DNA of 64,000 bases from Candidatus Nomurabacteria bacterium (GTDB lineage Bacteria > Patescibacteriota > Minisyncoccia > Phycocordibacterales > UBA9973), in assembly GCA_052035405.1 (NCBI GenBank), contig JBPOHQ010000007.1:12292-76291 (forward strand), written 5' to 3'. A model generated the notes under the pieces. The model had not been told where the DNA came from. It worked only from the letters and a program-made list of their open reading frames with translations, and made no database searches. Of this stretch, positions 32,580 through 48,715 are shown piece by piece (position 1 is the first letter of the stretch; every line of letters starts with the position of its first letter). The position numbers and the translations under genes are program-made.

Positions 32580-34031
32580 ATGTTGAAAAGATATTTTGTA
32601 TTTGTGTTTAGTTTTGCCTCCTTATTATCTTTTAATTTTGTTGGTGCGAGTGTGGTTATAAATGAAGTTCAAATATCTCCGACAGGAGATAGATTTATTG
32701 AACTCTTTAATCAAGACGATACAGAGGTAAATCTAACTGATTGGTATATTCAAAGGAAGACGCAAACAGGCACGAGTTTTAGCTCGCTTGTATCCAGTAC
32801 AAATTTTGAAAACAAAAAAATCAAAGGGCATGAATACTTTTTAATTTCTAGAAGCTTACTCAATAATTCAGATATCGTAGTGAGCACCATGACACTCACT
32901 GATTCCAATGTGATTCAGCTTAAAAATCAAAGCGGTGATATCGTTGACAAGCTCTGTTGGGGAGATGTGACTGATTGTGGAACGGTTGTCGCAAACCCTA
33001 CTGAAGGGAAAAGTGTCGCTCGAGGTACAGGTGGAGTGGTTATAGGAACACCGACACCTAAAGCAGCGAATAGTACTTCAGTCGGTGCTTCGGAACAGCA
33101 ACCAAATGAAGGAGCTCAGACCGATACATCTACTGGAACTACTACATCAGGATCAGGTTCTTCTATAAGTAAAACTGTAGAAGGAAAAATAATTACAAAA
33201 GTTGCAGTTAAAAGTATCGCGTTTGCGGGACTGCAAACGTCATTTCAGGCAAGTACCTTAGGCAAGGATGGATTACCGCTTTTTTATGGTAGATACTACT
33301 GGAATTTTGGTGATGGTACCTCACAAGAGACAAAAGTAAGTGATGGCGGGATGGTATCGCATACGTATTTTTATCCTGGTGAATACACGGTAATTCTAGA
33401 ATATTACATAAATAGTTATGGAGAAATTCCAGATGCAACAGACACAGTAAATCTAAAAGTAACAAGCGTAGAAGTTTTTATTTCAAGTATAGGGGACCAG
33501 AAAGATTTTTATATTGAACTTTCAAACAACACTGGGAACGACATTGATATTTCAAAATGGATCCTCGTCTCGGGAGAAAAAAGATTCTCATTTCCAAAAA
33601 ATACTTATATAGGAGCAAAAAAGAAAACCACATTTTCTCCCGCAGTAACTGGTTTTACTTTCTCTGACAAAAATAATCTAAAGTTAGTAAATCAAGATTG
33701 GAAAACTATTTTTGATTACGGCTCTACTGTGAGACCTATTCAAGTTGTATTACCGATAACTTATTCTTCAAGTAAAAAAGTAGCTCAAAAAGAAAATAGT
33801 TCTTCGTATACAATCACATTAGGAGAAAAAGAAGAAGACATAGAAAAAGATACGTTGTTGAATGCTCTTGTTGCACGTGGTGTTCAAAATAATACACCAA
33901 AGACTGGTACGTACCTGTATATTATTTTCTTTATTATTTTAATTTCTCTTGCGGGTTTTCTGGTATATATTCTTCGTAGAAGAAAATTTGGGACCAAAGA
34001 AGGTGACGACTTTGACATTTTAGATGAATAA
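32580..34031 (+). CDS. Surface protein with two lamin-tail domains (LTD) and a PKD domain, C-terminal transmembrane anchor
   Basis: VVINEVQISPTGDRFIELFN (LTD); YYWNFGDGTSQE...HTYFYPGEYTV (PKD, ~33290-33410); C-terminal LYIIFFIILISLAGFLVYILRRRK. Confidence 0.65.
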   Translation: MLKRYFVFVFSFASLLSFNFVGASVVINEVQISPTGDRFIELFNQDDTEVNLTDWYIQRKTQTGTSFSSLVSSTNFENKKIKGHEYFLISRSLLNNSDIVVSTMTLTDSNVIQLKNQSGDIVDKLCWGDVTDCGTVVANPTEGKSVARGTGGVVIGTPTPKAANSTSVGASEQQPNEGAQTDTSTGTTTSGSGSSISKTVEGKIITKVAVKSIAFAGLQTSFQASTLGKDGLPLFYGRYYWNFGDGTSQETKVSDGGMVSHTYFYPGEYTVILEYYINSYGEIPDATDTVNLKVTSVEVFISSIGDQKDFYIELSNNTGNDIDISKWILVSGEKRFSFPKNTYIGAKKKTTFSPAVTGFTFSDKNNLKLVNQDWKTIFDYGSTVRPIQVVLPITYSSSKKVAQKENSSSYTITLGEKEEDIEKDTLLNALVARGVQNNTPKTGTYLYIIFFIILISLAGFLVYILRRRKFGTKEGDDFDILDE

Positions 34032-34047
34032 CTATATCCTATAAACC

Positions 34048-34263
34048 ATGTTTAAAAATTTTTTACTTAAAAAGATGCTTCGATTAAAAGGCGTACCTGA
34101 AGCTCAAATAGATATGTTCGTAAATATGATGGAAAAAGACCCGGAGCTTTTCCAGAAAATTGCACTTGAAATACAAGAAAAAGTTAAAGGTGGGATGAGC
34201 GAGATGGATGCAGGTATGGTAGTGATGAAAAAGTATGAAGCAGAACTCAAAAAGTTAGTGTAA
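34048..34263 (+). CDS. Small hypothetical protein (71 aa)
   Basis: ORF with a terminator downstream. Confidence 0.35.
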   Translation: MFKNFLLKKMLRLKGVPEAQIDMFVNMMEKDPELFQKIALEIQEKVKGGMSEMDAGMVVMKKYEAELKKLV

Positions 34264-34320
34264 ATATCCTTAAATATAGATAAATTTTAATTATATATTT
34301 TATAGAGAGTTATACACATA

Positions 34321-34347
34321 AAAAAATGGCTTAAAGCCATTTTTTTC
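34321..34347. terminator. Bidirectional terminator A7-atggc-ttaa-gccat-T7
   Basis: Perfect hairpin flanked by A and T runs. Confidence 0.6.
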
Positions 34348-34382
34348 TTCATCAAGTTAAGATATAATATCTATATCCAGTA

Positions 34383-37300
34383 ATGGTAATAAATAAAAAA
34401 CAAAAAGGAAAAAGTAAATCCGTAAGGGCAATTTTGTTGATTGCTCTTTTCTCCTTTGTGTTTGTTTTAAACTCTATTTTCTATACTTTGTCTTTTGCAG
34501 CAGCAGGGGTTCCTCTTATAATAAATTTTCAAGGAAGACTCTTGAACTCTAGTGGTAACCTTTTGGGTGGAGCGTCCGGTACAAACTACTGTTATAAATT
34601 TTCTATTTACGATGCTGCGTCCGGTGGGTCTAAAATATGGCCAGCGGGTAGTCCTTCGACTATGACAATACTCACTCGTGAAGGAGTGTTCGATGCACCA
34701 GTCGGAGACGTTAGTGCAGGAGGGGATGCACTAACTTTAGCTTTCACTGATGACCAAGCTTTTATGAATGTCGAAGTATCTGCTATTGGAGCTGGAAGCT
34801 GTACTTCAGGAGATGAAAGTTTTGAGACTCTTACTCCACGTCAACAAATTGTTTCTTCTGCTTTTGCTATAAATTCAAAAACTGTTGGGGGATTCACTCC
34901 AGCACAATCTGCAACCGGTAGTCAGATACCAGTTCTCACTTCTGGGTCGCTCGTACTCGGAGATACAAATCCAGGGATTAAAGTTATAGGATCTAATACT
35001 CTCACTTTACAAAGTGGTGTTACTGGAGACATTCAGTTTTATAGTTCATCAAATAAAATTACTTCATCTGGTGATTTAACGATAGCAGGACTTGCAACTA
35101 CTGTCGGACTTACTTCTACTGGTAATGTTTCTATTACTTCTTCCAACACAACTCAAAATACCACATCATCTGCTCTTGCTGTGAACTTAAATTCACTTAC
35201 TTCCGGTACCGGAATATACGCAGCTTCTTCCTCTTTGACTTCCGGTTCACTGATGAATTTATCAATTACAGGTACAGGAGCACAAACAGGACAAAAGGGT
35301 TTAAATATTTCTCTGCAGGGTGCCAATGCTGTAGCAGGTCGAACCACTTATGGAGCGTATATTTCAAATGCTCATACAGGAACTTCGGTAAATATTAGTA
35401 CGTACTCTACGGCTAGTGGTGGTGCATTCAATGTGGGAGGGTATTTTGATTCTGCCGGTTCTGGAGCAACTAATACAGGTATTTATGCTTCAGCTTCAGG
35501 TGGTACAAATAATTACGCAGCTATTTTTGAAAATGGGAACGTGGGTATTGGAACTACTGCACCAACAAAAGCTCTGAGCATAGAAGGTGCGATGAATTTC
35601 TTAACATCCGGTGTTTCTCGTGGAATTGTTGGTCCGCCTACGTGGGACACTTCTTATGTAGCTATTCAAAATGGAACCTTAGCAGAAAGTACCTCTAATA
35701 CGGCTTTAGCTCAAAATGTATCTGGTGATACTATACTAAATGCCGCTACTGGTAGAACGCTTTACTTAAGGATAGGTAATGCTTCTTCTATGACATTGCT
35801 ATCTGGTGGTAATGTTGGTGTAGGGACAACAGCTCCAGATAAAGCTTTAGAAATCAATTCATCCACGGGTGCGAATTTACGTTTGACTTACAATGACTCA
35901 AATGGTTCTGCTACGAACTATGCAGATTTGCAAACTACAAGTGCTGGATATCTCACCGTAATTCCAAGTGGTGGACAGACAGATATAGGCACTAGAGCTG
36001 GAAGTGACGTGACGTACGGAACCTTAAATGTTTTTACCCCAGATGGAGCAACTAGGGGAATAAAGATAACTACAGGTGCAACATCTATTACTCAATCTCC
36101 GTTTAGCATCTATGATTCAGCCGGTTCTCTAAAAGCATCTATTGATACTTCATGGCGATGGAATTCTGTTGCAGGATTCGTTGCTCCAACTTTCTATACA
36201 GATACATGGCAGCCTTATACGGGTTCTGTTGACTTTAATATTAACCCACCTTCCACAAAAAATGTTAATTTAAATGTTGCAGGTGGAGGTCAGGTAGTAG
36301 TAACAGGTGGTATGAAAATTGGAACAACAACAGCTGCCTCTACCATTGTTGCAGCAAACACCACAGGTGGATCAAGTAATCCAGGAATTATTTTTGATAC
36401 AGCAGGGAATTACTGGGCAAACAGTCAACAGATATATTCTTTCCGAGAAAATGGAACAGAATTTTTCTCTATTGATGGTATCGGAAATATAAAAGCTCCA
36501 GCAGGAAATTTTACAACTTCAAGCACTACCCCAGAATCCGGAACCGACTCTTTCATTGGTCATGGTATGCGTCGTGCAAATACTGCTGCTGGATTTAATT
36601 TCGCATGGGGCGAATCAATAGTGTCGACCACTGAGCCAGGAATAGACTTATTCCCGATAGGTAGTAGTCATATAACAAATGGAATTCTTTTTAGATTATC
36701 TAAAGACAGTGCACGCACTGACGTGGCTTTACAAATAAATGGAGATGGAGGCATAGGGGTAAACACTACTCCGACTTCAGATTATTTATTTAATATAAAT
36801 GGTAATACTACAAATGATAACAGTAGAATATTAAATATAACTCAAGCAAACAATTCAGATGAAGACAGTAGTTCTATATATATAACAGCCACCCCAACAT
36901 TAGGATCAATAGCAGCTGAGCGCACTGTGAGAGGATCTTATCTGAGTTTGACTCCAAGCTTAACCATTGCTGGGGGTGGTATTTCTGGTAATGTTTTTGG
37001 TGCAGAAACTGCTATAGATTTATCTTCTGTTACTTTAGGAAATACAACGGGTGGTATAAATTCTGTGAATTATGGTAGCAGTGTGAACATTACAGGTACT
37101 CCAGTACTTAATGACACTCTTGCTGGTGATGACACTTTTCTAAGTGTATACGGTGCCTCTACAAATGTTCAAGTTTCTCCTACGTTAACAAATATTGGAA
37201 ATGCTGAGTTTCTAAGTTATGGAGCTTCTTTTAATAATGCTTCTAGTTCGCTTGGGAATGCAAATTTGTTAAGTCAAGCAACCGGTATTTATGTTTCTTC

Positions 37301-40300
37301 TGCCGGAGCCTTAACAACAACTGGAACGACATCACATTATGGTGCACAAATTACTGCAGGGGGTACTGCAGATACAAATTATGGATTATATGTTAGTAGT
37401 TCTGGAGCCACTACAAATTATGCTGCGATATTTGCATTAGGCAATGTAGGTATAGGTGATGTGGACCCGGCATCACTCTTTACAGTAGGTGCAGGGGATT
37501 TATTCCAAGTAAATAGTAGTGGTGCCATAGCTGCAGCGACAGGAGTTACTTCATCTGGTACCATTACATTCTCTGGACTTGGAGGAGGTGGATCACAGTG
37601 TGTTCTTACAGACAACTCAGGAATACTTTCTGCTGGTAGTTGTGGAGGTGGAGGAGCAACTTTGGACAGTGCTTATACAGCAGGTAATACAATAGGTACA
37701 GACAGTGGTAATAATGTAATTATAAACTTAGCCGAGGTGGCAACTCCGACAGAGTTTGTGATAAATAATCTAGATACAGCTGGAGTCAATGCAGTGCAGA
37801 TAGACAATGGTATAGCTTCAGGAACACTGACAAATGGACTTTTGTTAGAGCAGTCTGGTGCAGGCACTATGACTTCCGCTATTCAGATAACTGAGACAAC
37901 AGGCACTATCACAAATGGTATTTCTGTTACTGGAACTCTTACAAATATTTTAAATACCCCTACTCTTGATATTACAGGAGCAGGAGCGATAACAGGAGTG
38001 ACTGGTATATCAGGAGGTGATGTAGTAATAGATTTTAATGATTTTGTTGTAGACGTAGAAGGTTTTACTGTTATTGCACCAGACGCTACGGGAGATGCAT
38101 TGAGTATTATCTTTGGTGCAGCTACTGATTTGCAAGCAATTGTGATAGATGCTGCAACAAATGCGTCTACTCAGACAGAAGGGTTAATACAAATAACTTC
38201 AGATACTTCTACTGACACAGCTATTGCTGGAGTAGGACTCACTTTAGTGGCTGTTGATGATGATGCTGCAGATATACTTTATGGTCACCGTACAGATATA
38301 ACAATCCAAGAAGATACTACAGACAAGGATACAGTATATGGAAACTACGTAGGATTTACTCAAAATGATCCAAACTCAACAGGGTATGGATTTGCTGTTA
38401 TAGCAGAAGATGCTGGTACTTCACCTCTTGCTGTAGGTCTGCTTATTCAAAATCTCCAAGCCACTGATATAGACATAACAGATGGTATTTTGATACAAGC
38501 TACTACAAATGATTCTATTTTAGATGCTATAGATGTATCAGATGCAGAGATCACGAACGCTATAAACATAGGCACGAATTTACTTGTAGCATCTGGAGAC
38601 TCTATCAATGACTTCACTGGCAATGGCTTAGTTGTATCTTCAAATGCTCTTACTGTAGACACCACTCTTGGAGCTGATGGGCTTTCTGCTACGACTTCAT
38701 CTGGTTCAGGACTTGAAACATTGGCGACAGGAGTAGCATTACTCCAAGGTTGTGCACATGATGAAGTTTTGAAATGGAACGAAACTTCAGACGTTTGGGC
38801 TTGTGGGAAAGACAATGATTTAATTACTTTGTCTTGGGCTGAAACAAATTTGACTGCTTCACAAACTGCTCTACAAATGGACAGACCAAACGCTACTAAC
38901 TTAAACACAACTACCTCTGAGGCATACATGCCTTATGCTGGAAGTATCGTTGGTATAGAAGTCGGAGGTAGTGCTGCTCGTACTGCTGGTACTGCTACTT
39001 TTGAAGTATATAAAAATGGTGCTGCTACAGGATTAACTGCTGTTATAAATGGAACAAATACTCAATACGTAAGAACTACTCAAGTTCCAGGGACTGATAC
39101 TTTTGCAGCAGGAGATTATATAGATGTGAGAGAGACTACTACAGGAACCTTTGCTCCTACTACTTCTGAATACGTAGCTACTGTGTGGCTAGAGATAAAC
39201 GAAGGAGCTGACTTAGCAGAGTTATACAATATAGAAGATGTCAGTATTGAGTCAGGTGATGTTGTTGCAATACACCCATTCCTTGAAAATGGCATAATGA
39301 AAAGTAATAAAGCGTATCAGAAAGAAATTTATGGAGTAATTGCAACCAGACCGGGGGTTATTTTAGGTCAAAAAGAAATAGGAGACATAAGCATGTCTCG
39401 TGCGGTTGCTCTAGCTGGACGTGTGCCAGTCAAGGTAACTAATTCAAATGGTGTTATTAAAAAAGGTGATTATCTTACAAGTTCAGACATACCAGGAGTT
39501 GCAATGAAATTGACTAAAAATGGTATGTCTATTGGTATTGCCATGGAAGATTTTTATGGAGATGATGTTGGTAAAATAAATATGTATGTTAAAAATGGAG
39601 TAGTAAATGGTGATACAGAAAGTGTATTAGAAAATTTAGAAGGTTTGTCAGGAATAGAAACAAATAAAATAACCCTAAAGGGGCTGAATAGTATAGAACT
39701 AACATCAGAAAGTATAAGTGCACTTTCTAGTGCGATAGATTCTCTCAAATTTGAGAATTCAAAACAAGCAGATGATGTAATTATGCTTAATAACAAGAAC
39801 GAATCATTTGAAAATAAAATAATAAATATAGAGTCTGCTATGAGTTTAGGCATGTTTGAAAATAAAAATAATCTTAATTTAGAAACGTTAGTGGTGGGAG
39901 GGGAGGTACAGTTTAATGGACTAACATTCTTTAACTCAAGTACGGTGTTTAATCGAAATGTTACATTTGGTAATGTTGTAGAATTTACAACTCCACCACT
40001 TTTCAACAAAGACACAGCCGGTTTTGCGGTAATAAAAGCAGGAAGTAAAAAAGTGGAAGTAGTTTTCGAAAATCCGTATATAGCTCAGCCTGTAGTGAAT
40101 GCGTCTATTTCTTTAGAGGATTCAGTTAATCCCGCTACAGAGACTACCCCAGAAGTAGTGAATACTATGACAGACGAACAAGTTGAAGAATTTTTTAGCC
40201 AAAATATAGAGTACTTGATTACAAATAAAACTGAGAAAGGTTTTGTAATTAGAATAAATAAAGTAATTACAGAAGACGTACTATTCTCATGGTCAGCTTT

Positions 40301-40640
40301 TGCCGTAAAAGATCCAAAGATTTTTGAAAGTGTGTTGCCAGGACTTGTAATCGAGCAAGTTATTGAAGAAAATGAACCTACTCCTTCAAAGGTCATTCCA
40401 ACTCAAAACTCAACACCAGATGAAGCAATAATAGAAGAAACATCAGTATCCGAAGAAACAAATGAGACTATCGGTGCTCCAGAAGTTTTTGATACAGCAG
40501 AAACACCAGAACCTTCAACAGTTACAGATACACAAGAAAATCTAAATGCACAGGTGACAGAAGTTCCTGCAGTGTCTACTTTCAAAGAGACAAGAGCAGT
40601 AGAAATGAGTAATGCACCAGAGACTTTGATTGCGGAGTAG
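34383..40640 (+). CDS. Giant (2085-aa) membrane-anchored tail-fibre-like surface protein with an internal peptidase-S74 intramolecular-chaperone (IMC) domain
   Basis: N-terminal transmembrane helix; recurring [14 protein letters not shown](S/E)I motifs (fibre-type repeats); IMC domain [23 protein letters not shown]...[12 protein letters not shown] at 39201-39600; a further ~340 aa follow. Confidence 0.8.
39201..39600 (+). other. Peptidase S74 / 'chaperone of endosialidase' intramolecular-chaperone domain (internal)
   Basis: DLAELY...GDVVAIH...[13 protein letters not shown]...GRVPVKV pattern. Confidence 0.65.
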
Positions 40641-40682
40641 TATCCTTTGAGATATAATTCTAAACGTAGTTAAATCACATTT

Positions 40683-41096
40683 ATGTTAAGAAAAAAATCA
40701 TTTAGAATTCTGTTGTTATTAGTTACTTTAGGAGCGATAGGCCTTGCAGGGTATTTTTATTATGAACTCAATAATCTTAAAAATAATCCTCAATCAATAA
40801 CTAAGAAAGAGGTTTCAGACCTTGTGGATAAAGTTTCTCGATTAGTTTTGTTACCCGAGAAAGAGATACCCACAGTAGCCACTGTGTCAGATTTAGAAAA
40901 ACTCAAAGATCAAAAGTTTTTTGCTAAAGCTCAAAAAGGAGACAAGGTACTCATCTATGCAGAAGCAAAGAAAGCATATTTATATTCTGTAACAAAAGAC
41001 AGAGTTATAGATATTGCACCCCTCAATTTAGGAAACAAAAAAGAATCAAATACAGAAATACAAAATAGTAATGACAGTAGTCTTATTATAGAGTAG
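40683..41096 (+). CDS. Small membrane-anchored protein, paralogue 1
   Basis: N-terminal transmembrane helix; PTVATVSDLEKLKDQKFFAKAQKGDKVLIY closely matches the next ORF. Confidence 0.5.
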   Translation: MLRKKSFRILLLLVTLGAIGLAGYFYYELNNLKNNPQSITKKEVSDLVDKVSRLVLLPEKEIPTVATVSDLEKLKDQKFFAKAQKGDKVLIYAEAKKAYLYSVTKDRVIDIAPLNLGNKKESNTEIQNSNDSSLIIE

Positions 41097-41130
41097 TTTT
41101 ATTTGGTTAATATTCTAGTCTCTTGCTATA

Positions 41131-41547
41131 ATGGGCTACATGGCATACTTAAATTTTTATCTAAAAAAGAGAAATATTCATATGTTTGTTTTTTTGATAC
41201 TTTTAGTATTGGGTATTTTCTTTTTCAAAAATAAATTAAGTCTCGTTGGTCAGAGCACAGATAACAAGACAGTAAGTGAAAGTAAAATGTTAGCAAGAAA
41301 GGTGGGCAAGATAATGTTTGTGCCGAAGGATGAAGACCCTACCATAGCTACAGTTACAAATCCAGAAAACTTAAGAGGACAATCTTTTTTTGTGGATGCA
41401 AAAGTGGGTGATAAAGTTTTAATCTATAAAAATGCGAAAAAAGCTATTTTATATGATCCAATAGCTGATAAGATTATCACTATTGCACCACTTATCCTAG
41501 GTGAGCAAGATTCTACCGGATTAAATACTCCTGTATTTAAGTATTAA
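41131..41547 (+). CDS. Small membrane-anchored protein, paralogue 2
   Basis: PTIATVTNPENLRGQSFFVDAKVGDKVLIY; same architecture as 40683-41096. Confidence 0.5.
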   Translation: MGYMAYLNFYLKKRNIHMFVFLILLVLGIFFFKNKLSLVGQSTDNKTVSESKMLARKVGKIMFVPKDEDPTIATVTNPENLRGQSFFVDAKVGDKVLIYKNAKKAILYDPIADKIITIAPLILGEQDSTGLNTPVFKY

Positions 41548-41563
41548 TTTCTAAAATGGTCAG

Positions 41564-42586
41564 ATGAGAAATATTTTTAAAATTAAAAAATTAAACATTT
41601 TAAAGACGACCCTATATTTCTTTTATATTTCTTTTATATTTCTTTATTTTTTTTCTAATGGTCATGCTGTTGATTTAACTAGTACTAATTTTATCGTTCG
41701 AGATCCAATTATAGGTACTGGTGGAGACTATGGTACTTCTAGTAGCTTTAAATTATATTCAGCAGGTAACACCCTTCTCTCTGGTGTAGGTTCTTCCGCT
41801 ACCTATATAGGACATTATGGTTTTTTATACTATCCTTTTATAACTTTAGGTACTTTGTCTGCTGTAGCTTCTGGGGCTGATGCAAACCTTTCTTGGCCAG
41901 TATCTGCTGCAGGTCAAGGCTGGACAGTATCCGGATATAATACTGGTAAAGCTGCAGTTTCTGGCGGGCCATATACATATACTTCAGTAGGTAACGTAAC
42001 AAGCTATTCATATACTGGACTGACTCCAGGAAATTATTGTTTTGTTTTGCAGACATTGGATGGTCTCGGAAATGTAATTGGTACTTCAAATGAGTCTTGT
42101 ATAACCATACGTCCTACCCTTACTTTTTCGATACCTACTACAAGTGTAAATTTTGGTACCCTTTCATCTACTGGTCCAAGATATGCAAATGCAACGACGG
42201 GTAGTGCTACTGATGTGGTTGCTCACACTATGCAGGCTAGTAGTAATGCTTCTTCAGGATACGTCATTACCTACAAAGGTCCTACATTAACTTTCGGTAC
42301 ACATACGATAAATGTTGCTTCTAGTGTTTCTGGAGATGGTTCGGCGGGCACAGAACAATTTGGTATGTCTTTGTCTACCACCGGGTCAGCTACCATACCA
42401 GCAGCATATCAACAATCAGGACCAACTAGAACTTTCGTAGACAACACTACTACGAGCATAGCTAGCACCTCAGGGATTACTTCGACAGAGACATTTAGCA
42501 ATCATTACTTAGCAAACATTTCACCTGTTACAGAAGCAGGACCCTACTCTACCACAATAACTTTCATTGCCACAGGAACTTATTAG
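41564..42586 (+). CDS. Secreted Thr/Ser/Gly-rich beta-rich protein (adhesin/fibre-subunit-like), C-terminus ...TITFIATGTY
   Basis: Signal peptide; shared C-terminal motif with the next ORF. Confidence 0.45.
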   Translation: MRNIFKIKKLNILKTTLYFFYISFIFLYFFSNGHAVDLTSTNFIVRDPIIGTGGDYGTSSSFKLYSAGNTLLSGVGSSATYIGHYGFLYYPFITLGTLSAVASGADANLSWPVSAAGQGWTVSGYNTGKAAVSGGPYTYTSVGNVTSYSYTGLTPGNYCFVLQTLDGLGNVIGTSNESCITIRPTLTFSIPTTSVNFGTLSSTGPRYANATTGSATDVVAHTMQASSNASSGYVITYKGPTLTFGTHTINVASSVSGDGSAGTEQFGMSLSTTGSATIPAAYQQSGPTRTFVDNTTTSIASTSGITSTETFSNHYLANISPVTEAGPYSTTITFIATGTY

Positions 42587-42647
42587 TTATCCACATTAAA
42601 AATAATGGTGCAGTTAGTTATTTATTGGTATAATCTAATTAATTTTT

Positions 42648-43892
42648 GTGCAAGTCGCACAATTTTATTGTTTAATAAAATTATTATCAGTTAGTATTAA
42701 AAATATGAAAATTTTAAAAAAAATTACCAGTTTATCACTTATTATGATGTTAATGGTACTAACATCAGGTGTTGTTAATGTTAATAAAGCTTTAGCCGCT
42801 TCTATGACGGCTTCCAAAGATACAGCTACAAGACTAAAAATAAGTACCACAGCTGATCATACTATAGTGACTACTCTCCCTACTGGTGTTGATTTTGATT
42901 CTACGGGTAATACTGATATGTTGCGTTTTGATTTTGCTTCTACCTTCAGTACTTCAGGTACATGGGTCACAGGAGACTTCACATTTAACGATGGTACAGC
43001 TAGAACGGTTCAAGCTGTTGCACAAGGTGCGGGTACCGTAGATTGTACAGTGTCAGCTGGTGTGAACAATGTCTGTGTGGCTATAGACACTACCGGTTTT
43101 GCTTTTTATGTAAAACCTTCTGCTACGTACACAGCATCAGCAACTGCTGCAACTATAACATTTACTATTGATGGAACTACTACTGATGGAACTTTAACAA
43201 ACCCTGCTTCAGCAGGTTCAGCAGCTCTTGATCTTGCAGCTTGCGATGAAGTAGCTTCATGTACAACTTCATTTACTTCTTCTCATACAGCAGCCACCGC
43301 TCTTGGAATTGCAGATGATGATCAGGTTACCGTGACTGCCACAGTGAATTCTTCCCTTACTTTTGACTTAGATGCTAACACTTCTGGAACTGGAGACACG
43401 GTAGCCCCATATACTGTGGCTTTAGGTACTATTACTACTGTAGATACTCGTGTGTCTGGTGCAACAGATTCAGTAAACAGAATAATGATGGATCTAGATA
43501 CTAACGCTGCTTCTGGTGTGGTTGTAACTGTAAAAGATGCAAACGGCACAAACGGTCTTGTCTCTACTTCTGTACCGGCTGATAATATAAACAGTGCTGA
43601 CGGTACTATGGCTGATGGAACAGAAAATTATGGACTTTGCGTTATTTCCGTAACTCAAACCCTTGGTACACTTTCAAAAGCATCTCCATATAACTCAGGA
43701 ACATGTGCTGCTGATTCAGAAACAAATGATATACAGGCTTTAACGACTTCAGGAGAGAACATCGTAAGTTCAGCTGCTCCTATATCAGGTGGACGAGCAC
43801 AAATAGCGGTAAATGCTGCTATAAGTGGTATTACACCTGCTCACTCTGACTATACAGATACCCTAACCTTTATTGCAACTAGTACTTTTTAA
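42648..43892 (+). CDS. Secreted Thr/Ser/Ala-rich protein, paralogous C-terminus ...TLTFIATSTF (probable start at ATG 42706)
   Basis: Signal peptide MKILKKITSLSLIMMLMVL; composition and C-terminal motif like 41564-42586. Confidence 0.45.
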   Translation: MQVAQFYCLIKLLSVSIKNMKILKKITSLSLIMMLMVLTSGVVNVNKALAASMTASKDTATRLKISTTADHTIVTTLPTGVDFDSTGNTDMLRFDFASTFSTSGTWVTGDFTFNDGTARTVQAVAQGAGTVDCTVSAGVNNVCVAIDTTGFAFYVKPSATYTASATAATITFTIDGTTTDGTLTNPASAGSAALDLAACDEVASCTTSFTSSHTAATALGIADDDQVTVTATVNSSLTFDLDANTSGTGDTVAPYTVALGTITTVDTRVSGATDSVNRIMMDLDTNAASGVVVTVKDANGTNGLVSTSVPADNINSADGTMADGTENYGLCVISVTQTLGTLSKASPYNSGTCAADSETNDIQALTTSGENIVSSAAPISGGRAQIAVNAAISGITPAHSDYTDTLTFIATSTF

Positions 43893-43905
43893 ATTTTAAT
43901 CGACT

Positions 43906-44931
43906 TTGATTATAATGAAAAATTATTTAAGTGACAGAAAAATTTCGCTAATAACTTCTCTATTTTTTGCACTATTTATTTTATTCAGTGCTAACCAGGT
44001 GTTTGCTCTTAGCTTATCTCCTGTTAGATTTGAGTTACAAGGTGATCCCGGACAATCTGTATCAGGAGAAATAATCTTAACTAACGAAACTGACTACCCT
44101 CAGACTTTCTATTCTTCTTTCTCAAACTTTGAAGCTCAAGGTGAGTCAGGTAACCCTGCTTTTGTTGTTCCTAAAAATGATTTAGGTACATGGATATCTA
44201 CTTCAGATATTGTTAATCTAGAACCACATGTTACTAAAAATGTTCCGTTCACTATAGATATACCAAAAGATGCTGAGCCAGGAGGTCATTTTGCTGTTAT
44301 CTTTTTTGGAGATACACCCGTAAATAATACTGGTGGTGGTGCAGTATCAGTTGGATCACAAACCGGTGCACTTGTCTTACTTTCTGTTAGTGGAGATGTA
44401 AAACAAGCAGGAGGAATGACAGCTTTCAACTTAAAGAACAATAAGCATTTTTATAATACTTTACCAGTAGATTTTGAATACAAATTTAAAAACGATGGAG
44501 GTGACCGCATTAAACCAGATGGTTTAATTACAGTTAGAAATATAATTTTTTATCCAAAAGTTAAGTTAGATGCTAACCCAAGTGAAGGGAATATACTTCC
44601 TGGAAGTACTCGAAAGTTTGAGATTAGTTGGATAAATTATTCTAGACCAAAAGACTTTACTCCTTCTTCAAATGTTTTTACTAGATATATAGAAATGGTT
44701 AAATATCAATGGCAAAATTTTGCTTTTGGTCCTTACTTTGCAAAAATACATCTTTCTTATGCTGGTTTAAATTTTGGTGACGGTAGTACCTTGTTTTTCT
44801 TTGTATTCCCTTGGCAACTTCTTATATTGATAGCTTTTGTATTAGGTGGATTGTATGTAATTGGAAAGAAAGTTCTCATACGTTACAATGCCCACATTAT
44901 AGAAAAAGCTAAACAAAATATGAAGTTGTAA
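43906..44931 (+). CDS. Cell-surface protein with C-terminal transmembrane anchor, DUF916/DUF3324 (CscA-like) architecture (tentative)
   Basis: Signal peptide; LSLSPVRFEL...PKDAEPGGHFAVIFF; C-terminal helix LLILIAFVLGGLYVIG + KK. Confidence 0.4.
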   Translation: MIIMKNYLSDRKISLITSLFFALFILFSANQVFALSLSPVRFELQGDPGQSVSGEIILTNETDYPQTFYSSFSNFEAQGESGNPAFVVPKNDLGTWISTSDIVNLEPHVTKNVPFTIDIPKDAEPGGHFAVIFFGDTPVNNTGGGAVSVGSQTGALVLLSVSGDVKQAGGMTAFNLKNNKHFYNTLPVDFEYKFKNDGGDRIKPDGLITVRNIIFYPKVKLDANPSEGNILPGSTRKFEISWINYSRPKDFTPSSNVFTRYIEMVKYQWQNFAFGPYFAKIHLSYAGLNFGDGSTLFFFVFPWQLLILIAFVLGGLYVIGKKVLIRYNAHIIEKAKQNMKL

Positions 44932-44942
44932 ACTTTTCTTTA

Positions 44943-45851
44943 ATGAAACATATAATATTCAAAAAGACAATTATTGGTGTTTCGCTATTTTTCTTTTTAA
45001 TTTTTTCTATTTATTCGTATACTTTTGCTTTTGATATAACTTTTAGCGAAGATGTGAGTGTAACAGCACAAGTAGGTTCTATCATTACTTCTCCTAGTGG
45101 AGGGTCTGGATCCGGTTCGGATAATCCTATAATGTTGCCAGAGACAAGTGTGCTCTTTTCTGGTATAGCTTACCCAAATGCCATAGTTACTTTACTTAAA
45201 GATGGAGTAGAAAAAACTAAAGTAACGGCAAACAAAGATGCTTATTTTTCAATAACATTGTTCGAAGAGTATGAGAATAATGCTCTATATACTCTTTTTG
45301 CAAAAGATATAGAAGGCGGGCGTTCATTACTGTTAAATTATCCAATTGTAATTCATACTGGGTACACAACTTATGTTAATGGTATATTGTTTCCCCCTAC
45401 TATAAGTACAGACAAATTAGAAGTTGCATTAGGTGATTATCTGTCCGTGTTCGGATATGCTGCACCAGAAGAAGATATGAAGATTTTTTTTGAAGGACCT
45501 CAAAAAAAATCTTTTGCTTTAAAATCAAATAAATTAGGAAAGTATGCACTTACACTACCTTTATCTGGTTTAGTAAAAGGAGATTATGTTGTTTATGTAA
45601 AATATGAAGCACACACTAGAGTTAGTAAATTGATTAGATTCGTAATTGGAGAAAAGAATGTTCTAAATACAAAAGAAATTACTGATATACCAGGGGATTG
45701 TAACGCAGATAGAGCCATAAATCTTACAGATCTTTCTATCTTATCTTTTTGGTATAAAAGATTAAATCCACCTAAGTGTGTAGACGTAAACGCAGATAAA
45801 TTGATAGATTTAGTAGACTTCTCTATAGTAGCTTTTTATTGGACAGGATAA
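44943..45851 (+). CDS. Dockerin-containing surface protein (N-terminal anchor/signal, C-terminal type-I dockerin pair)
   Basis: DCNADRAINLTDLSIL and DVNADKLIDLVDFSIV give two D-x-N-x-D-x-x-I-(N/D)-x-x-D calcium-binding repeats (45685-45848). Confidence 0.6.
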   Translation: MKHIIFKKTIIGVSLFFFLIFSIYSYTFAFDITFSEDVSVTAQVGSIITSPSGGSGSGSDNPIMLPETSVLFSGIAYPNAIVTLLKDGVEKTKVTANKDAYFSITLFEEYENNALYTLFAKDIEGGRSLLLNYPIVIHTGYTTYVNGILFPPTISTDKLEVALGDYLSVFGYAAPEEDMKIFFEGPQKKSFALKSNKLGKYALTLPLSGLVKGDYVVYVKYEAHTRVSKLIRFVIGEKNVLNTKEITDIPGDCNADRAINLTDLSILSFWYKRLNPPKCVDVNADKLIDLVDFSIVAFYWTG

Positions 45852-45857
45852 TTACAT

Positions 45858-46727
45858 ATGATCAAAAAAATTATTTTATTTTTAGTTATACTGTTTTCTT
45901 TTTCTACAAATGCACATGCTGCATCTCTTTTTTTGGATTCACCAACAGATATTAAAAAAGACCAAATTTTTGAAGCTAATATAAAGTTAGACTCTATGGG
46001 AGAAGTGGTAAACTCTTTTTCTATTAGTTTAGCGTACCCAGTAGAATTGCTTACCTTCAATGGATATAAGGAGGATTCTACTGTGATAAAGATGTTTATA
46101 GAGAAGCCAAAGGTTGTTAATGGTAAAATTTCTTTTAGTGGTATTATTCCCGGTGGTATTTCTGGATTTTACGATCCCAATAAAAAAGATGTAAACACAC
46201 TACCAGTTATAACATTACTTTTTAAACCAAGGAATGCTGGTGAAGGAGTCTTCTCTTTTACAGACATACAAATACTTAAAAATGATGGTTTGGGTACTAG
46301 CTTGTCTACCCAAAGTTCTGATAAAAATATAAAGGTAAATTCTGTAGAAGAATCTATAAAAGAAGAAAAGGACAGCATAAAGCCTCTTCCTTTTAATATA
46401 CAGTTAATAGAAGCATCTAGCCTGTCAAATACTCCACTCATGCTGTATTTTAATACAAGGGATTTAGATTCTGGAATAAAAAATTATCAAATAAAAATTA
46501 ATAATACTGTTTGGATGAACGCAGAGAGTCCTTATGTCATCTCAAGAGGATTTTTTGCAAAAAACTTCACAGTTAGGGCTTTTGATCATGCTGGTAACTA
46601 CGAAGACGCTCATCTTCGTTTGGAGGGTAAATCGTTTGATTTTATTACCCTAATTATATTAGTATTAATCGTGTTTGTCTTATGTCTCTCTTATCTGTTA
46701 ATATGGAGAAATGGTAAATTCGATTAG
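45858..46727 (+). CDS. Cohesin-like domain protein, C-terminal transmembrane anchor
   Basis: Signal peptide; ~140-aa domain FSISLAYPVELLTF...LLFKPRNAGEGVFSFTDIQILKNDG fits the cohesin consensus; C-terminal transmembrane helix. Confidence 0.5.
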   Translation: MIKKIILFLVILFSFSTNAHAASLFLDSPTDIKKDQIFEANIKLDSMGEVVNSFSISLAYPVELLTFNGYKEDSTVIKMFIEKPKVVNGKISFSGIIPGGISGFYDPNKKDVNTLPVITLLFKPRNAGEGVFSFTDIQILKNDGLGTSLSTQSSDKNIKVNSVEESIKEEKDSIKPLPFNIQLIEASSLSNTPLMLYFNTRDLDSGIKNYQIKINNTVWMNAESPYVISRGFFAKNFTVRAFDHAGNYEDAHLRLEGKSFDFITLIILVLIVFVLCLSYLLIWRNGKFD

Positions 46728-47853
46728 AAATCTTAATATATTTATATTTATCGGAGTACTTTTGTTAAGTCCAAGTATTTCTTCTGCAGATAATTCTAGG
46801 TTGTTTTTTAGCAATCCTCCAAAACAAATAGAAGAAGGAGAGAGGGTTACTTTTGATATAAATATTGAATCCAAAACTCAATCCATAAATGCTATATCTG
46901 GTGTTGTATATTTTCCTTCTGAATTATTGCAAGTTGTATCTGTTTCTAAAGAAAAGAGTTTAATCAATTTTTGGACACATGAGCCAAAAGTTTTTAGAGA
47001 CAAAATATCTTTTGAAGGAGTCATTTTAAATCCTGGGTTTCAAGGGTCTAAGAGTAAAATTTTTAGTATTACCTTTGAAGCTAAAAATAAAGGTACAGCA
47101 AATCTAGGCTTTACTGAGGGTTCAGTCCTTGCAAATGATGGTATGGGTAGCAATGTTCTTACCTATCTAGATAGGGTGATTTTTAAAATAATAGGTGTAA
47201 CGTTAAAGCCTGATACCACTGTACCTCAGCTACCTAAAAAAGATTTAGCTGAAATACCTAAAATAAAAAAAATTGCAAAATTACCCATAATCACAGACTA
47301 TCCATCTTTTGTGAACTCAAAAGAAAAATTACATTTAGAAGGTGAAGGTGAACCAAATGCACTGACAAAAATCGTCTTTGAAGATGTGTCTGTAAAATCT
47401 ATTGGAGAGAGGTTTATGGAATTTGTGCAGACAGAAAAGAAAAAGTTAGACAGCGTATTGGTTAAAAATAATGAAGTTGGTAAATTTGATTACGTTAGTC
47501 CCTCTGATCTATTAGCTGGTGTTTATAACGCTACTCCCTTTTTAATAGAAGAAGAAACAAACACTGAAAAACCAGGTTTTGGTGTTCAACTTTTTGTGAA
47601 GGACAGTAAAATAGTTAATTACCTCATTGTAGCCATAAATGTACTTGGGTTACTTATTCCTATTGTTACATTATGTGTGATAGTATATTTCATACCATGG
47701 TATTCATGGAGAAAAATGAGGGTTCTGAAAAGGAAATTAGGATTAGAAGAAGAAAAAATAGAGCTTATAGGTATTGACTTAGAAAGACAGAGTAATCAAA
47801 GGGTGGACAGGAGTGTCTCTTTTAAAGAAGAAAATATATTAAAAAAAGAATAG
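46711..47853 (+). CDS. Cohesin-like domain protein 2, C-terminal transmembrane anchor (paralogue of 45858-46727)
   Basis: NAISGVVYFPSELLQV...ITFEAKNKGTANLGFTEGSVLANDG aligns with the preceding protein. Confidence 0.5.
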   Translation: MVNSIRNLNIFIFIGVLLLSPSISSADNSRLFFSNPPKQIEEGERVTFDINIESKTQSINAISGVVYFPSELLQVVSVSKEKSLINFWTHEPKVFRDKISFEGVILNPGFQGSKSKIFSITFEAKNKGTANLGFTEGSVLANDGMGSNVLTYLDRVIFKIIGVTLKPDTTVPQLPKKDLAEIPKIKKIAKLPIITDYPSFVNSKEKLHLEGEGEPNALTKIVFEDVSVKSIGERFMEFVQTEKKKLDSVLVKNNEVGKFDYVSPSDLLAGVYNATPFLIEEETNTEKPGFGVQLFVKDSKIVNYLIVAINVLGLLIPIVTLCVIVYFIPWYSWRKMRVLKRKLGLEEEKIELIGIDLERQSNQRVDRSVSFKEENILKKE

Positions 47854-47863
47854 TTGCATCTAA

Positions 47864-48715
47864 ATGAAAGATAAAATAATTTTAAAAATTATATATGTTT
47901 TTGCTTGTATCGGTTTTATTTTCGTATTGGTTTTTCTATTAATGCAATTTGGGTTACTTAATGTTCGTGGTTCTATTAAAGAGAGAAATCAATTTTTTGG
48001 ACAAGTAAAGAAAACAGACAATACAAACGGATGCTTGCATGCCCCAGAGACGCAAGATGAAGAAGTGCTGTGTGCTTGGGTTGATACCGCAGAATGGGAA
48101 GTGGTTCGCGAAGGTTTAAAAAAAGATGCATCTATAATACAAGACGTCTCGCAGAAAACTGGTGTGTCGGCTCGGATGATTGCCGCATCTGTTGTCCCTG
48201 AGCAGATAAGGTTCTTTACTTCTAATAGGGAAAGTTTTAAAAGATATTTTGAGCCTATGAAACTTTTAGGTTCAATGTCTCAGTTTTCTCTTGGTGTGTC
48301 TGGTATCAAACAAGAGACTGCGAATGATATAGAAAAATATGCAAATGACTCAACTTCACCGTTTTATCCTGGAGGAGGATTCGCAGAACTGCTTGTCTAT
48401 CCAAATGGTGTAAACCACGACACGGAACTTTACAATAGGCTTACTGATTCAAAAAACCACTATTATTCTTATCTTTATACTGCCATTTATTTAAAAGAGA
48501 TAGAAACACAATGGAAGAATGCTGGGTTTGAAGTAGGTGATAGGCCAGATGTTTTGGTTACACTCTTTAATCTTGGTTTTAAAGCATCCAATCCTAAACC
48601 AAATCCACAAGTTGCTGGGTCTCTAATCTATGTCGGAGGTAAAAATTATACTTTTGGAGTACTAGGTAGTTCATTCTATAATTTAAATGAACTTATAGAT
48701 ATATTTCCAAATTAA
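47864..48715 (+). CDS. Membrane-anchored hypothetical protein
   Basis: N-terminal transmembrane helix; no family recognised. Confidence 0.4.
   Translation: MKDKIILKIIYVFACIGFIFVLVFLLMQFGLLNVRGSIKERNQFFGQVKKTDNTNGCLHAPETQDEEVLCAWVDTAEWEVVREGLKKDASIIQDVSQKTGVSARMIAASVVPEQIRFFTSNRESFKRYFEPMKLLGSMSQFSLGVSGIKQETANDIEKYANDSTSPFYPGGGFAELLVYPNGVNHDTELYNRLTDSKNHYYSYLYTAIYLKEIETQWKNAGFEVGDRPDVLVTLFNLGFKASNPKPNPQVAGSLIYVGGKNYTFGVLGSSFYNLNELIDIFPN

Follow-up and report, generated by a model that had tools for sequence, protein, structure and literature searches.

Much of the diversity of bacteria belongs to the Patescibacteria, and those few that have been cultivated live attached to the cells of a host, by means that have scarcely been described. 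The closest described system to the locus examined here is the Pam pilus, a thin filament first recognised in 2026 in a single species of Saccharimonadia, Candidatus Mycosynbacter amalyticus, for which the NCBIfam models NF058581 and NF058579 are available (Troman et al., bioRxiv 10.64898/2026.03.03.709456). From cryo-electron microscopy (cryo-EM) of its filaments, PamA and PamB were identified as pilins of two domains each that assemble through donor-strand exchange. Further products of the operon (NZ_CP045921.1, WP_260763277-289) are PapD-like chaperones (PamC/D) with a C-terminal transmembrane (TM) helix, the tip subunit PamT, which has no donor strand, and the membrane-anchored terminator PamR, which is composed of an N-terminal strand, two fibronectin type III (FnIII) domains and a TM segment. 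A tail-fibre-like protein is found in the conserved pam neighbourhood, an ATP synthase gene neighbourhood was reported for pam operons, and no Pam homologues were found outside the ultrasmall bacteria of the candidate phyla radiation (CPR) (Troman et al., bioRxiv 10.64898/2026.03.03.709456). A membrane protein of the same architecture as the chaperone found here occurs in the WxL/Csc clusters of Firmicutes, namely WxLIP (DUF916-DUF3324-TM) (Hassan et al., 2023, PMC10599100; PDB 9i25 and 9i1y). We analysed a stretch of 64,000 nucleotides from a Candidatus Nomurabacteria bacterium (contig JBPOHQ010000007.1, positions 12,292 to 76,291; hereafter the window). The core of its genes at 34383-47853 is very probably a Pam-type pilus operon, and this region as a whole probably encodes a donor-strand pilus of the Pam type with a tip load and a membrane anchor in a Paceibacteria-like lineage (Table 1).

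Table 1. Features of the probable pilus locus and its edges, numbered from the first nucleotide of the window
Feature	Position	Strand	Basis or remark
LTD-PKD-LTD protein	32580-34031	+	Pfam LTD x2 and PKD; N-terminal segment and C-terminal TM
Giant secreted fibre protein, 2085 aa, signal peptide	34383-40640	+	ORF call, hydropathy
Small N-terminally anchored protein, paralogue 1, 137 aa	40683-41096	+	Hydropathy, family alignment
Small N-terminally anchored protein, paralogue 2, 138 aa (121 aa from alternative start)	41131-41547	+	Hydropathy, family alignment
Tip-type pilin, 340 aa	41564-42586	+	NCBIfam NF058581 match, no donor motif
Perfect DnaA-box consensus TTATCCACA	42587-42595	+	Directly after tip pilin stop codon
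Candidate extended -10 TGGTATAAT	42626-42634	+	Upstream sequence of shaft pilin
Hairpin then T-run, candidate leader	42646-42662	+	Hairpin prediction
Shaft-type (major) pilin, 395 aa from ATG 42705	42705-43892	+	Motif, profile homology to tip pilin
Pilus chaperone, 341 aa (338 from ATG 43915)	43906-44931	+	AlphaFold2 model, Foldseek
Secreted dockerin adaptor, 302 aa	44943-45851	+	Pfam on orthologues, motif, hidden Markov model
Cohesin anchor 1, 289 aa	45858-46727	+	AlphaFold2 and Foldseek
Cohesin anchor 2, 380 aa	46711-47853	+	Homology to anchor 1, PDB profile matches
Last gene of the twelve	47864-48715	+	N-terminal hydrophobic segment

The original prediction had read twelve co-directional genes at 32580-48715 as one coherent surface apparatus. 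Our calls agreed with that layout, with 12 open reading frames (ORFs) on the + strand joined by short gaps or overlaps. Loci were gathered via the chaperone-like protein, which has 898 homologues and relatives in at least 157 genome stretches, and all window proteins were mapped onto 80 loci, each from a different species-level Patescibacteria genome. The chaperone-like gene was present in 80/80 loci, the dockerin gene in 76, the two cohesin genes in 71 and 70, the two pilin-like genes in 66 and 62 and the small paralogues in 36, absences being mostly due to contig ends. The order pilin(s)-chaperone-dockerin-cohesin-cohesin on one strand was near-invariant in 70-80 of the 80 genomes, and more distant loci kept it as well. 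Junctions across loci were overlaps or gaps of few nucleotides (≤20 nt), the shaft pilin gene excepted. The giant gave a similarity match in 15/80 loci, and a + strand ORF of at least 800 amino acids (aa) lay immediately 5' of the small-TM/pilin block in 19 of the 39 loci with enough flank. Near the operon, the LTD-PKD gene was found in none of the 80 loci, the 71-aa ORF that follows it (34048-34263) in only one and the last gene in only two; elsewhere the genes 3' of the operon were housekeeping genes, e.g. those of ThrRS, GyrB and YchF. Because order and strand are kept across loci while the edge genes are not co-conserved, the conserved unit is 40683-47853, with the giant as a frequent but variable companion. 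By co-conservation, the criterion set for refuting the original prediction, and by gene fusions, the idea of a single apparatus was supported for nine of the twelve genes (34383-47853), with strict synteny in about 70-80 genomes, although more loosely for the giant. The first two genes of the series and its last gene had no such support, and we take them to be neighbours and not parts of the pilus system.

The product of the first pilin gene comprises a signal peptide, an N-terminal domain (aa ~35-185) and a C-terminal Pam pilin domain (aa 194-340), and it matched NF058581 (CPR_Pam_pilin_C) with 70.1 bits (cut-off 55; E 2e-19). The match to the PamT model was partial (50.8 bits, cut-off 240), and with its extra N-terminal domain the protein is no PamT equivalog. 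Among 72 pilin-family members, 39 matched CPR_Pam_pilin_C (best E 6e-35). The second pilin has a signal peptide, an N-terminal domain, a putative donor-strand motif, QVTVTATV, and a C-terminal Pam pilin domain. Its Pam membership follows from the homology of this last domain to that of the tip pilin: profiles of the tip-type and shaft-type domains aligned over the whole domain by hhalign (probability 100%, E 2e-45). In most pilins, a V-T-V-T-A-T-V motif with alternating hydrophobic residues stands directly N-terminal to the C-terminal domain. In the 70 loci having at least two pilin genes, the window included, the first pilin gene of the run was without this motif in 67, and the motif was present in 70 of the 76 non-first genes. 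This is the pattern expected if the first pilin is an acceptor-only tip subunit and the later ones form the shaft; having no donor strand, the first pilin would be placed only at the distal tip. The pilins carry neither a sorting signal nor a C-terminal TM segment (hydropathy), and their C-termini end in TFIATGTY/F. For the shaft pilin, an alternative GTG start at 42648 lies inside the predicted hairpin, so ATG 42705 is the likelier true start; the 395-aa form was called on Joint Genome Institute (JGI) contigs. Sequence searches against the PDB with both pilins, the pilin and chaperone profiles and the giant gave nothing usable, and the PamA/PamB chains were not detected.

The chaperone has a signal peptide, and its AlphaFold2 (AF2) model, with a predicted local distance difference test score (pLDDT) of 89.5, shows two immunoglobulin (Ig)-like beta-sandwich domains and a C-terminal TM helix (aa ~303-340). 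The top PDB matches by Foldseek were WxLIP of Enterococcus faecium (9i25_C and 9i1y, E 1e-10); CfaA, CsuC and EcpB, chaperones of chaperone-usher systems, came next (E 1e-9 to 6e-7), and Pfam WxLIP_PGBD was matched below threshold (E 0.012; 16 bits, cut-off 27.3). Because WxLIP and then chaperone-usher chaperones are the best structural matches, the modelled fold bears out both the earlier label of a DUF916-like anchor protein and that of a membrane-anchored PapD-like chaperone as in Pam. The structural kinship between the modelled Pam-type chaperone and WxLIP may reflect a common origin. Residues ~136-150 form the sole low-confidence loop of the model (pLDDT 57), with an invariant GVS[IV]GAxTG that loosely resembles the donor motif. 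This loop could be a strand lent to the pilins; a hidden Markov model (HMM) of the pilin linker, run across the chaperone family, gave no support for the likeness. In one genome (L015:10004-11917, +), the chaperone and the dockerin adaptor are encoded by one 637-aa ORF, which is either a true fusion or an assembly frameshift.

Downstream of the chaperone gene lie one dockerin gene and two cohesin genes. The adaptor consists of a signal peptide, a donor-strand-like DVSVTAQV, a Gly-rich linker, two Big_6-type Ig domains and a C-terminal type I dockerin, and its mature N-terminus is FDITFSEDVSVTAQVGSIITS. The dockerin covers aa 246-302. With Pfam Dockerin_1 it scored 19 bits in the protein of the window, under the cut-off of 22.9, but 34/36 adaptor orthologues matched this model, and 36/36 matched Big_6. 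In the Ca2+ loops (D-x-N-x-D...D), D252, N254, D256, D263, D285 and D292 were invariant and D281 and N283 nearly so, and the dockerin protein that had been predicted here is upheld by the orthologues and these loops. Throughout the family, [ED]-x-V-[ST]-[VI]-[ST]-A-x-V is conserved at the mature N-terminus, and a poly-Gly linker comes after it. The pilin-linker HMM matched 31 of 76 dockerin proteins at residues ~28-46 compared with 13 of 834 other non-pilin ORFs, the donor motif was 40-fold enriched in the dockerin family over other ORFs (Fisher p 1e-26), and a regular expression found it in 94 of 125 adaptor homologues. Since the adaptor carries the pilin donor motif, we propose that it may end the pilus by strand donation to the last shaft subunit.

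Anchor 1 has a signal peptide, a cohesin at aa 22-162, an FnIII-like domain and a C-terminal TM helix (AF2 pLDDT 81). The cohesin-FnIII double module 2w1n was its top Foldseek match (E 2e-11), and 2jh2 (TM-score 0.80, root-mean-square deviation 2.7 A) and 2vo8 (TM-score 0.79) were also matched. Pfam Cohesin was detected in 5/36 orthologues and, as a precomputed annotation, on relatives, and one homologue carries the NCBI name 'cohesin domain-containing protein'. The gene of anchor 2 begins within that of anchor 1, with 17 nt in common. Anchor 2 has a signal peptide and a cohesin at aa 28-165, then another domain, a TM helix and a cytoplasmic tail of ~50 aa that is conserved. It is homologous to anchor 1 (BLASTP E 4e-14; cohesin profiles by hhalign, probability 99.9%, E 1e-33), and its best PDB profile matches were R. 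flavefaciens cohesins, so both cohesin-like anchors of the original prediction were confirmed. No further dockerin or cohesin was found elsewhere in the window or in the locus flanks, and across loci dockerins were confined to the adaptor family and cohesins to the two anchor families. We give the anchoring of the pilus by cohesin-dockerin contact an even chance or slightly better. The tail of anchor 2 is strongly conserved (YFIPWYSxRRMRxLKxKxGLEEEKIEL), which hints at an intracellular partner or signal.

Natural gene fusions connect these modules. L088 encodes a 402-aa secreted protein in which the N-terminal domain of the tip pilin (48% identity, E 1e-38) is joined to the Ig-Ig-dockerin body of the adaptor (43%, E 2e-64). 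Two cohesin anchors come next, and both the chaperone and any C-terminal pilin domain are missing from the locus. The layout is equally pilus-less in L089 and L090, and at least five further homologues are tip-domain/dockerin-body fusions, two unrelated types of tip domain being involved. Furthermore, in 12 loci the place of the first 'pilin' was taken by a giant (846-2582 aa) that has the Pam C-terminal domain at its end, is without a donor motif and shares segments with the separate giants of other genomes. These two kinds of fusion support the order giant/tip - shaft - dockerin adaptor - cohesin anchor. Read together, they suggest that the constant ends of the system are the payload (tip domain or giant) and the dockerin/cohesin socket, and that the shaft with its chaperone would be an insertable spacer. 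They also support the idea of fibre display, raised in the original prediction, for the giant of the window.

The giant itself is an accessory, variable module 5' of the pilus genes. Its C-terminal ~400 aa are common to giants at the equivalent position in other genomes, and aa ~1600-1745 and 1800-2000 are conserved among the giants of 11 loci. Searched whole or in pieces, it had no Pfam, PHROG or PDB sequence match, and PHROGs gave no match for any other operon protein. It had been described as tail-fibre-like with an IMC domain. With Pfam, no IMC, Peptidase_S74 or G2 match was obtained for the giant, for five pieces of it or for six orthologous giants; the pieces and the orthologues gave weak Fibritin_C matches and, near the C-terminus, recurrent sub-threshold H_lectin matches. 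A likeness of the segment ADLAELY...GDVV to Peptidase_G2 was considered and dropped, as the family model gave no support. The sole phage link was a similarity of ~100 aa: aa ~1609-1711 share 42% identity with a structural protein of the virion of jumbo phage PA5oct, the gene of which adjoins a long tail fibre gene. The description as tail-fibre-like, possibly glycan-binding, is thus fair but weak, and the IMC domain was not retained.

The two small anchored proteins are 40% identical (E 2e-26). Pairwise and profile comparisons hence bore out both pairs of paralogues that had been proposed, the pilins with their homologous C-terminal domains being the other. Paralogue 1 has a conserved extracytoplasmic domain of ~70 aa (PTIATVSDPEALKDQxFFxxAKKGDKVLIY), and no Pfam or PDB relatives were found for either protein. 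Where the upstream flank was long enough to tell, 9/9 loci with a fused giant were without the small anchored protein and 32/46 of the others had it (p 1.3e-4), and its gene is kept beside the giant in the pilus-less locus L088. The small anchored paralogue travels with a separate giant.

Within the operon, only the shaft pilin gene has a long intergenic gap in front of it (median 103 nt across loci). In the window this gap begins with a perfect DnaA-box consensus, TTATCCACA. We searched the zone from -200 to +20 of the shaft pilin start in 70 related loci (L005-L084, upstream of the last pilin gene), and in either orientation the element was exact in 42/70 and within one mismatch in 56/70. 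The remaining 1.15 Mb of the same loci contained 16 exact copies. The window has a second copy at 40823-40831 (-), inside the gene of small paralogue 1. The extended -10 and the hairpin with T-run (42626-42662) are a candidate promoter and leader of the shaft pilin gene, and the distance from the DnaA box to the nearest -10-like hexamer varies across loci. The position of the box suggests that DnaA, or a factor of the same specificity, regulates the major pilin. Reading the box as a replication origin was set aside: there was a single box in the gap, no GC-skew turn and no DnaA Walker motif in the window.

From these data we propose the following working of the system. All components would leave the cell via Sec, as their signal or anchor segments indicate. 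The membrane-tethered two-Ig chaperone, judging from its fold and from the Pam model, would cap the open C-terminal Ig-like domain of new pilins. The tip-type pilin with its acceptor domain only would take the distal end, a position deduced from the observed motif pattern. The shaft pilin, which has a putative donor strand, an acceptor domain and its own putative promoter region, would polymerise head to tail, as its homology to the cryo-EM-proven Pam pilins implies. Growth would end once the last shaft subunit has taken up the pilin-like strand from the N-terminus of the adaptor, and the dockerin of the adaptor would plug into the cohesin of anchor 1 or anchor 2 and tether the filament. The giant would be the distal payload, probably a glycan-binding adhesin, held on the N-terminal domain of the tip pilin with the help of the small paralogues, as the fusions in other genomes suggest. 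We hold the placement of the giant at the pilus tip with less confidence than the anchoring. In the complete scheme, which would be a novel mode of pilus anchoring in bacteria, the adaptor strand would cap a donor-strand pilus of monoderm-like CPR cells, and the dockerin would plug into TM cohesins in a Ca2+-dependent and potentially reversible way. The socket would take the tip domain directly in pilus-less relatives, the pilus would be an optional spacer for a giant phage-tail-fibre-like adhesin, and shaft expression would be tied to the DnaA-box-like site. This scheme is tentative, and we would put its chance of being right somewhat below even.

The window has in common with Pam two-domain pilins with predicted Sec export, whose C-terminal Ig-like domain is open and preceded by a putative inter-domain donor strand, a donor-less tip, a PapD-like TM-anchored chaperone, the lack of an usher or trans-envelope machine, a tail-fibre-like giant nearby and the restriction to CPR bacteria. 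However, there is one chaperone here and two in Pam, and a DnaA-box-like element lies 5' of the shaft pilin gene. The role of PamR is apparently split here between a strand-Ig-Ig-dockerin adaptor and two cohesin-TM anchors. Dockerin, cohesin and WxL are unmentioned in the Pam preprint, and this difference is drawn from the preprint text only. The locus had been presented as not described as a unit. This no longer applies to the pilin-chaperone core, which is Pam (2026 preprint and NCBIfam), nor to its tail-fibre-like neighbour, noted in the same preprint; it appears still to apply to the cohesin-dockerin part, which was absent from the preprint and from the literature searched. In that literature, no paper was found that connects pili with cohesin-dockerin modules or reports this operon from Patescibacteria, and the cohesin-dockerin base is apparently an undescribed part of the system. 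Chaperone-usher pili (Pap/Fim, Csu and CFA/I) have in common with the system proposed here the donor-strand logic, the two-Ig chaperone fold, tip-first assembly and a growth-stopping terminator subunit, as PapH. They differ in having an outer membrane and usher, whereas the chaperone is membrane-anchored, the pilins have two domains and the proposed anchor is a non-covalent cohesin-dockerin contact in our locus. No usher-like ORF or Pfam match was found in the operon or its conserved neighbours, so the likeness is one of logic only. The operon is also different from sortase-assembled pili of Gram-positive bacteria: the pilins are without LPXTG signals, a motif scan of the 64-kb window found no sortase TLxTC motif, and the sole LPXTG-like signal is on the unrelated LTD-PKD protein.

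Several observations weigh against a Pam-type pilus with a cohesin-dockerin base. In structure the chaperone is matched best by WxLIP, and no polymerisation is known for the partners of WxLIP; the shaft pilin alone does not reach the NCBIfam Pam pilin model. No single operon protein combines strand and TM helix as PamR does, and a simple motif scan of the window found no Walker motif of ATP synthase alpha/beta. The adaptor motif is short, and the HMM detected it only in the fraction of the family given above, below that found by regular expression. Strand insertion by the adaptor and cohesin-dockerin binding are steps that we infer, and gene order and fusions are the only grounds for placing a separate giant on the tip. 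It could be argued that two independent systems are neighbours here, a Pam-type pilus anchored in another way and a cohesin-dockerin display of the adaptor's two Ig domains. Cohesin-dockerin pairs do occur outside pilus contexts, the published Pam model does not need them, and L088, L089 and L090 indicate that the module can work alone. However, the dockerin gene follows the chaperone gene by an overlap or a gap of few nucleotides in 70+ genomes, and the N-terminus of its product copies the pilin donor motif. Moreover, in the pilus-less loci the N-terminal domain of the tip pilin replaces the N-terminus of the adaptor, which ties both modules to one function. We consider two separate systems unlikely. 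A cellulosome-like complex degrading polysaccharide is hardly credible. Cohesin and dockerin modules are present, and the likeness to cellulosomes and to Clostridium perfringens glycoside hydrolase modules (2w1n, 2jh2, 2vn5) extends to the cohesin fold, the cohesin-FnIII tandem and a type I dockerin with two Ca2+ loops. But the sole dockerin sits on an Ig-domain protein that has a pilin-like donor strand or, elsewhere, a pilus tip domain, and enzyme domains, those of glycoside hydrolases included, are absent from the operon. Each anchor carries a single cohesin fixed by its own TM segment, so there is no multi-cohesin scaffoldin.

Further points of contact exist with WxL/Csc clusters, on which basis the 'pilins' would be single surface proteins held by a WxLIP-like protein via a beta-hairpin in a non-filamentous complex. 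Among solved folds the closest is that of WxLIP, one structure of which includes a bound WxL protein; WxLIP likewise consists of two Ig domains and a TM helix, and strand insertion into the partner is predicted in both systems. The gene also lies beside a short and a long secreted protein sharing a C-terminal domain, as in WxL clusters. The agreement with WxLIP is at fold level only. None of the 72 pilin-family members matched Pfam WxL and their C-termini have no W-x-L motifs, which ruled out a WxL assignment of the pilins themselves. Their C-terminal domain matches the Pam pilin model, and PamA/PamB were solved as filaments by cryo-EM, whereas WxL proteins are described as peptidoglycan-bound monomers and WxL clusters are without cohesin or dockerin. 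In addition, a donor motif in later, but not first, pilin genes fits ordered polymerisation. A WxL-type complex is improbable. The remaining alternative, that all twelve genes at 32580-48715 form one apparatus, draws on the single strand, the short gaps and the nearly complete export of the products, and on an identical arrangement on near-identical metagenome contigs. However, those contigs are of the same species, the LTD-PKD gene, the 71-aa ORF and the last gene are as good as absent from the operon's surroundings in the 80 genomes, its downstream neighbours elsewhere are housekeeping genes, and the 71-aa ORF has no export signal; we regard this alternative as very improbable. A Pam-type pilus of nine genes with a dockerin adaptor and cohesin anchors is the reading that we prefer.

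Export and anchor segments of the 12 ORFs were predicted by a Kyte-Doolittle hydropathy scan. An N-terminal hydrophobic segment was found in 11/12, and an additional C-terminal TM segment in four (the LTD-PKD-LTD protein, the chaperone and both cohesin anchors). The proposal that all twelve products are exported or anchored hence stands for 11; it fails for the 71-aa ORF, which has no hydrophobic segment and which has a 65%-identical homologue in locus L022. On these two grounds the ORF is probably a real, non-exported protein, and the view that nothing cytoplasmic interrupts the series has to be given up. The domain composition of the LTD-PKD-LTD protein was as predicted (LTD x2 and PKD by Pfam). 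Its C-terminus has NTPKTG, a hydrophobic stretch and RRRK, i.e. an LPXTG-type sorting signal, which scored 15.9 bits, exactly the NCBIfam cut-off. At the other edge, 28 related loci carry, after the second cohesin anchor, a gene for an exported protein of ~360 aa that resembles solute-binding proteins (SBP_bac_3), with a C-terminal TM helix and a coiled-coil tail (for example L057:15035-16123 and L088:12632-13726, at position +4 after the chaperone); the window has the unrelated last gene in this place. The locus is flanked by genes of ordinary metabolism, upstream those for a transketolase and a pfkB kinase and downstream those for an LD-carboxypeptidase, a binding protein and a sulfatase, and an Rfam search of the window gave no match. 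The contig is present in the samples JGI 3300045396, JGI 3300045379 and SRR34217540. A second giant (2271-10232, +; 2653 aa) contains SpvB, FG-GAP, eight RHS repeats, Bact_surface_Ig-like and Gly_rich_2, with a Peptidase_M15 domain at the C-terminus. In this it resembles a polymorphic-toxin shell of the Rhs/Tc type whose payload would be a peptidoglycan peptidase, here in the genome of a CPR bacterium.

The homologues came from metagenome-assembled genomes labelled Paceibacterota, Nomurabacteria, Parcubacteria and Minisyncoccia, so the earlier guess of an episymbiotic, reduced genome is reasonable. A dockerin-domain protein is reported to be essential in the cultivated Saccharibacterium Southlakia epibionticum (PMC10633639), which offers a lead. 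The present locus shows a Pam-related system in Paceibacteria-like genomes, with the breadth given above for relatives of its chaperone. Our model addresses three points that the Pam study did not settle or answered in another way: how such a filament may be tethered to the cell (cohesin-dockerin), whether a variable N-terminal domain or a giant may occupy its tip, and how its major subunit may be regulated. The natural fusions are ready-made constructs for experiments. If the model is true, cohesin-dockerin biology would be widened from enzyme scaffolds to the anchoring of an organelle, and a plug would hold the filament in place of a sortase, an usher or a TM pilin.

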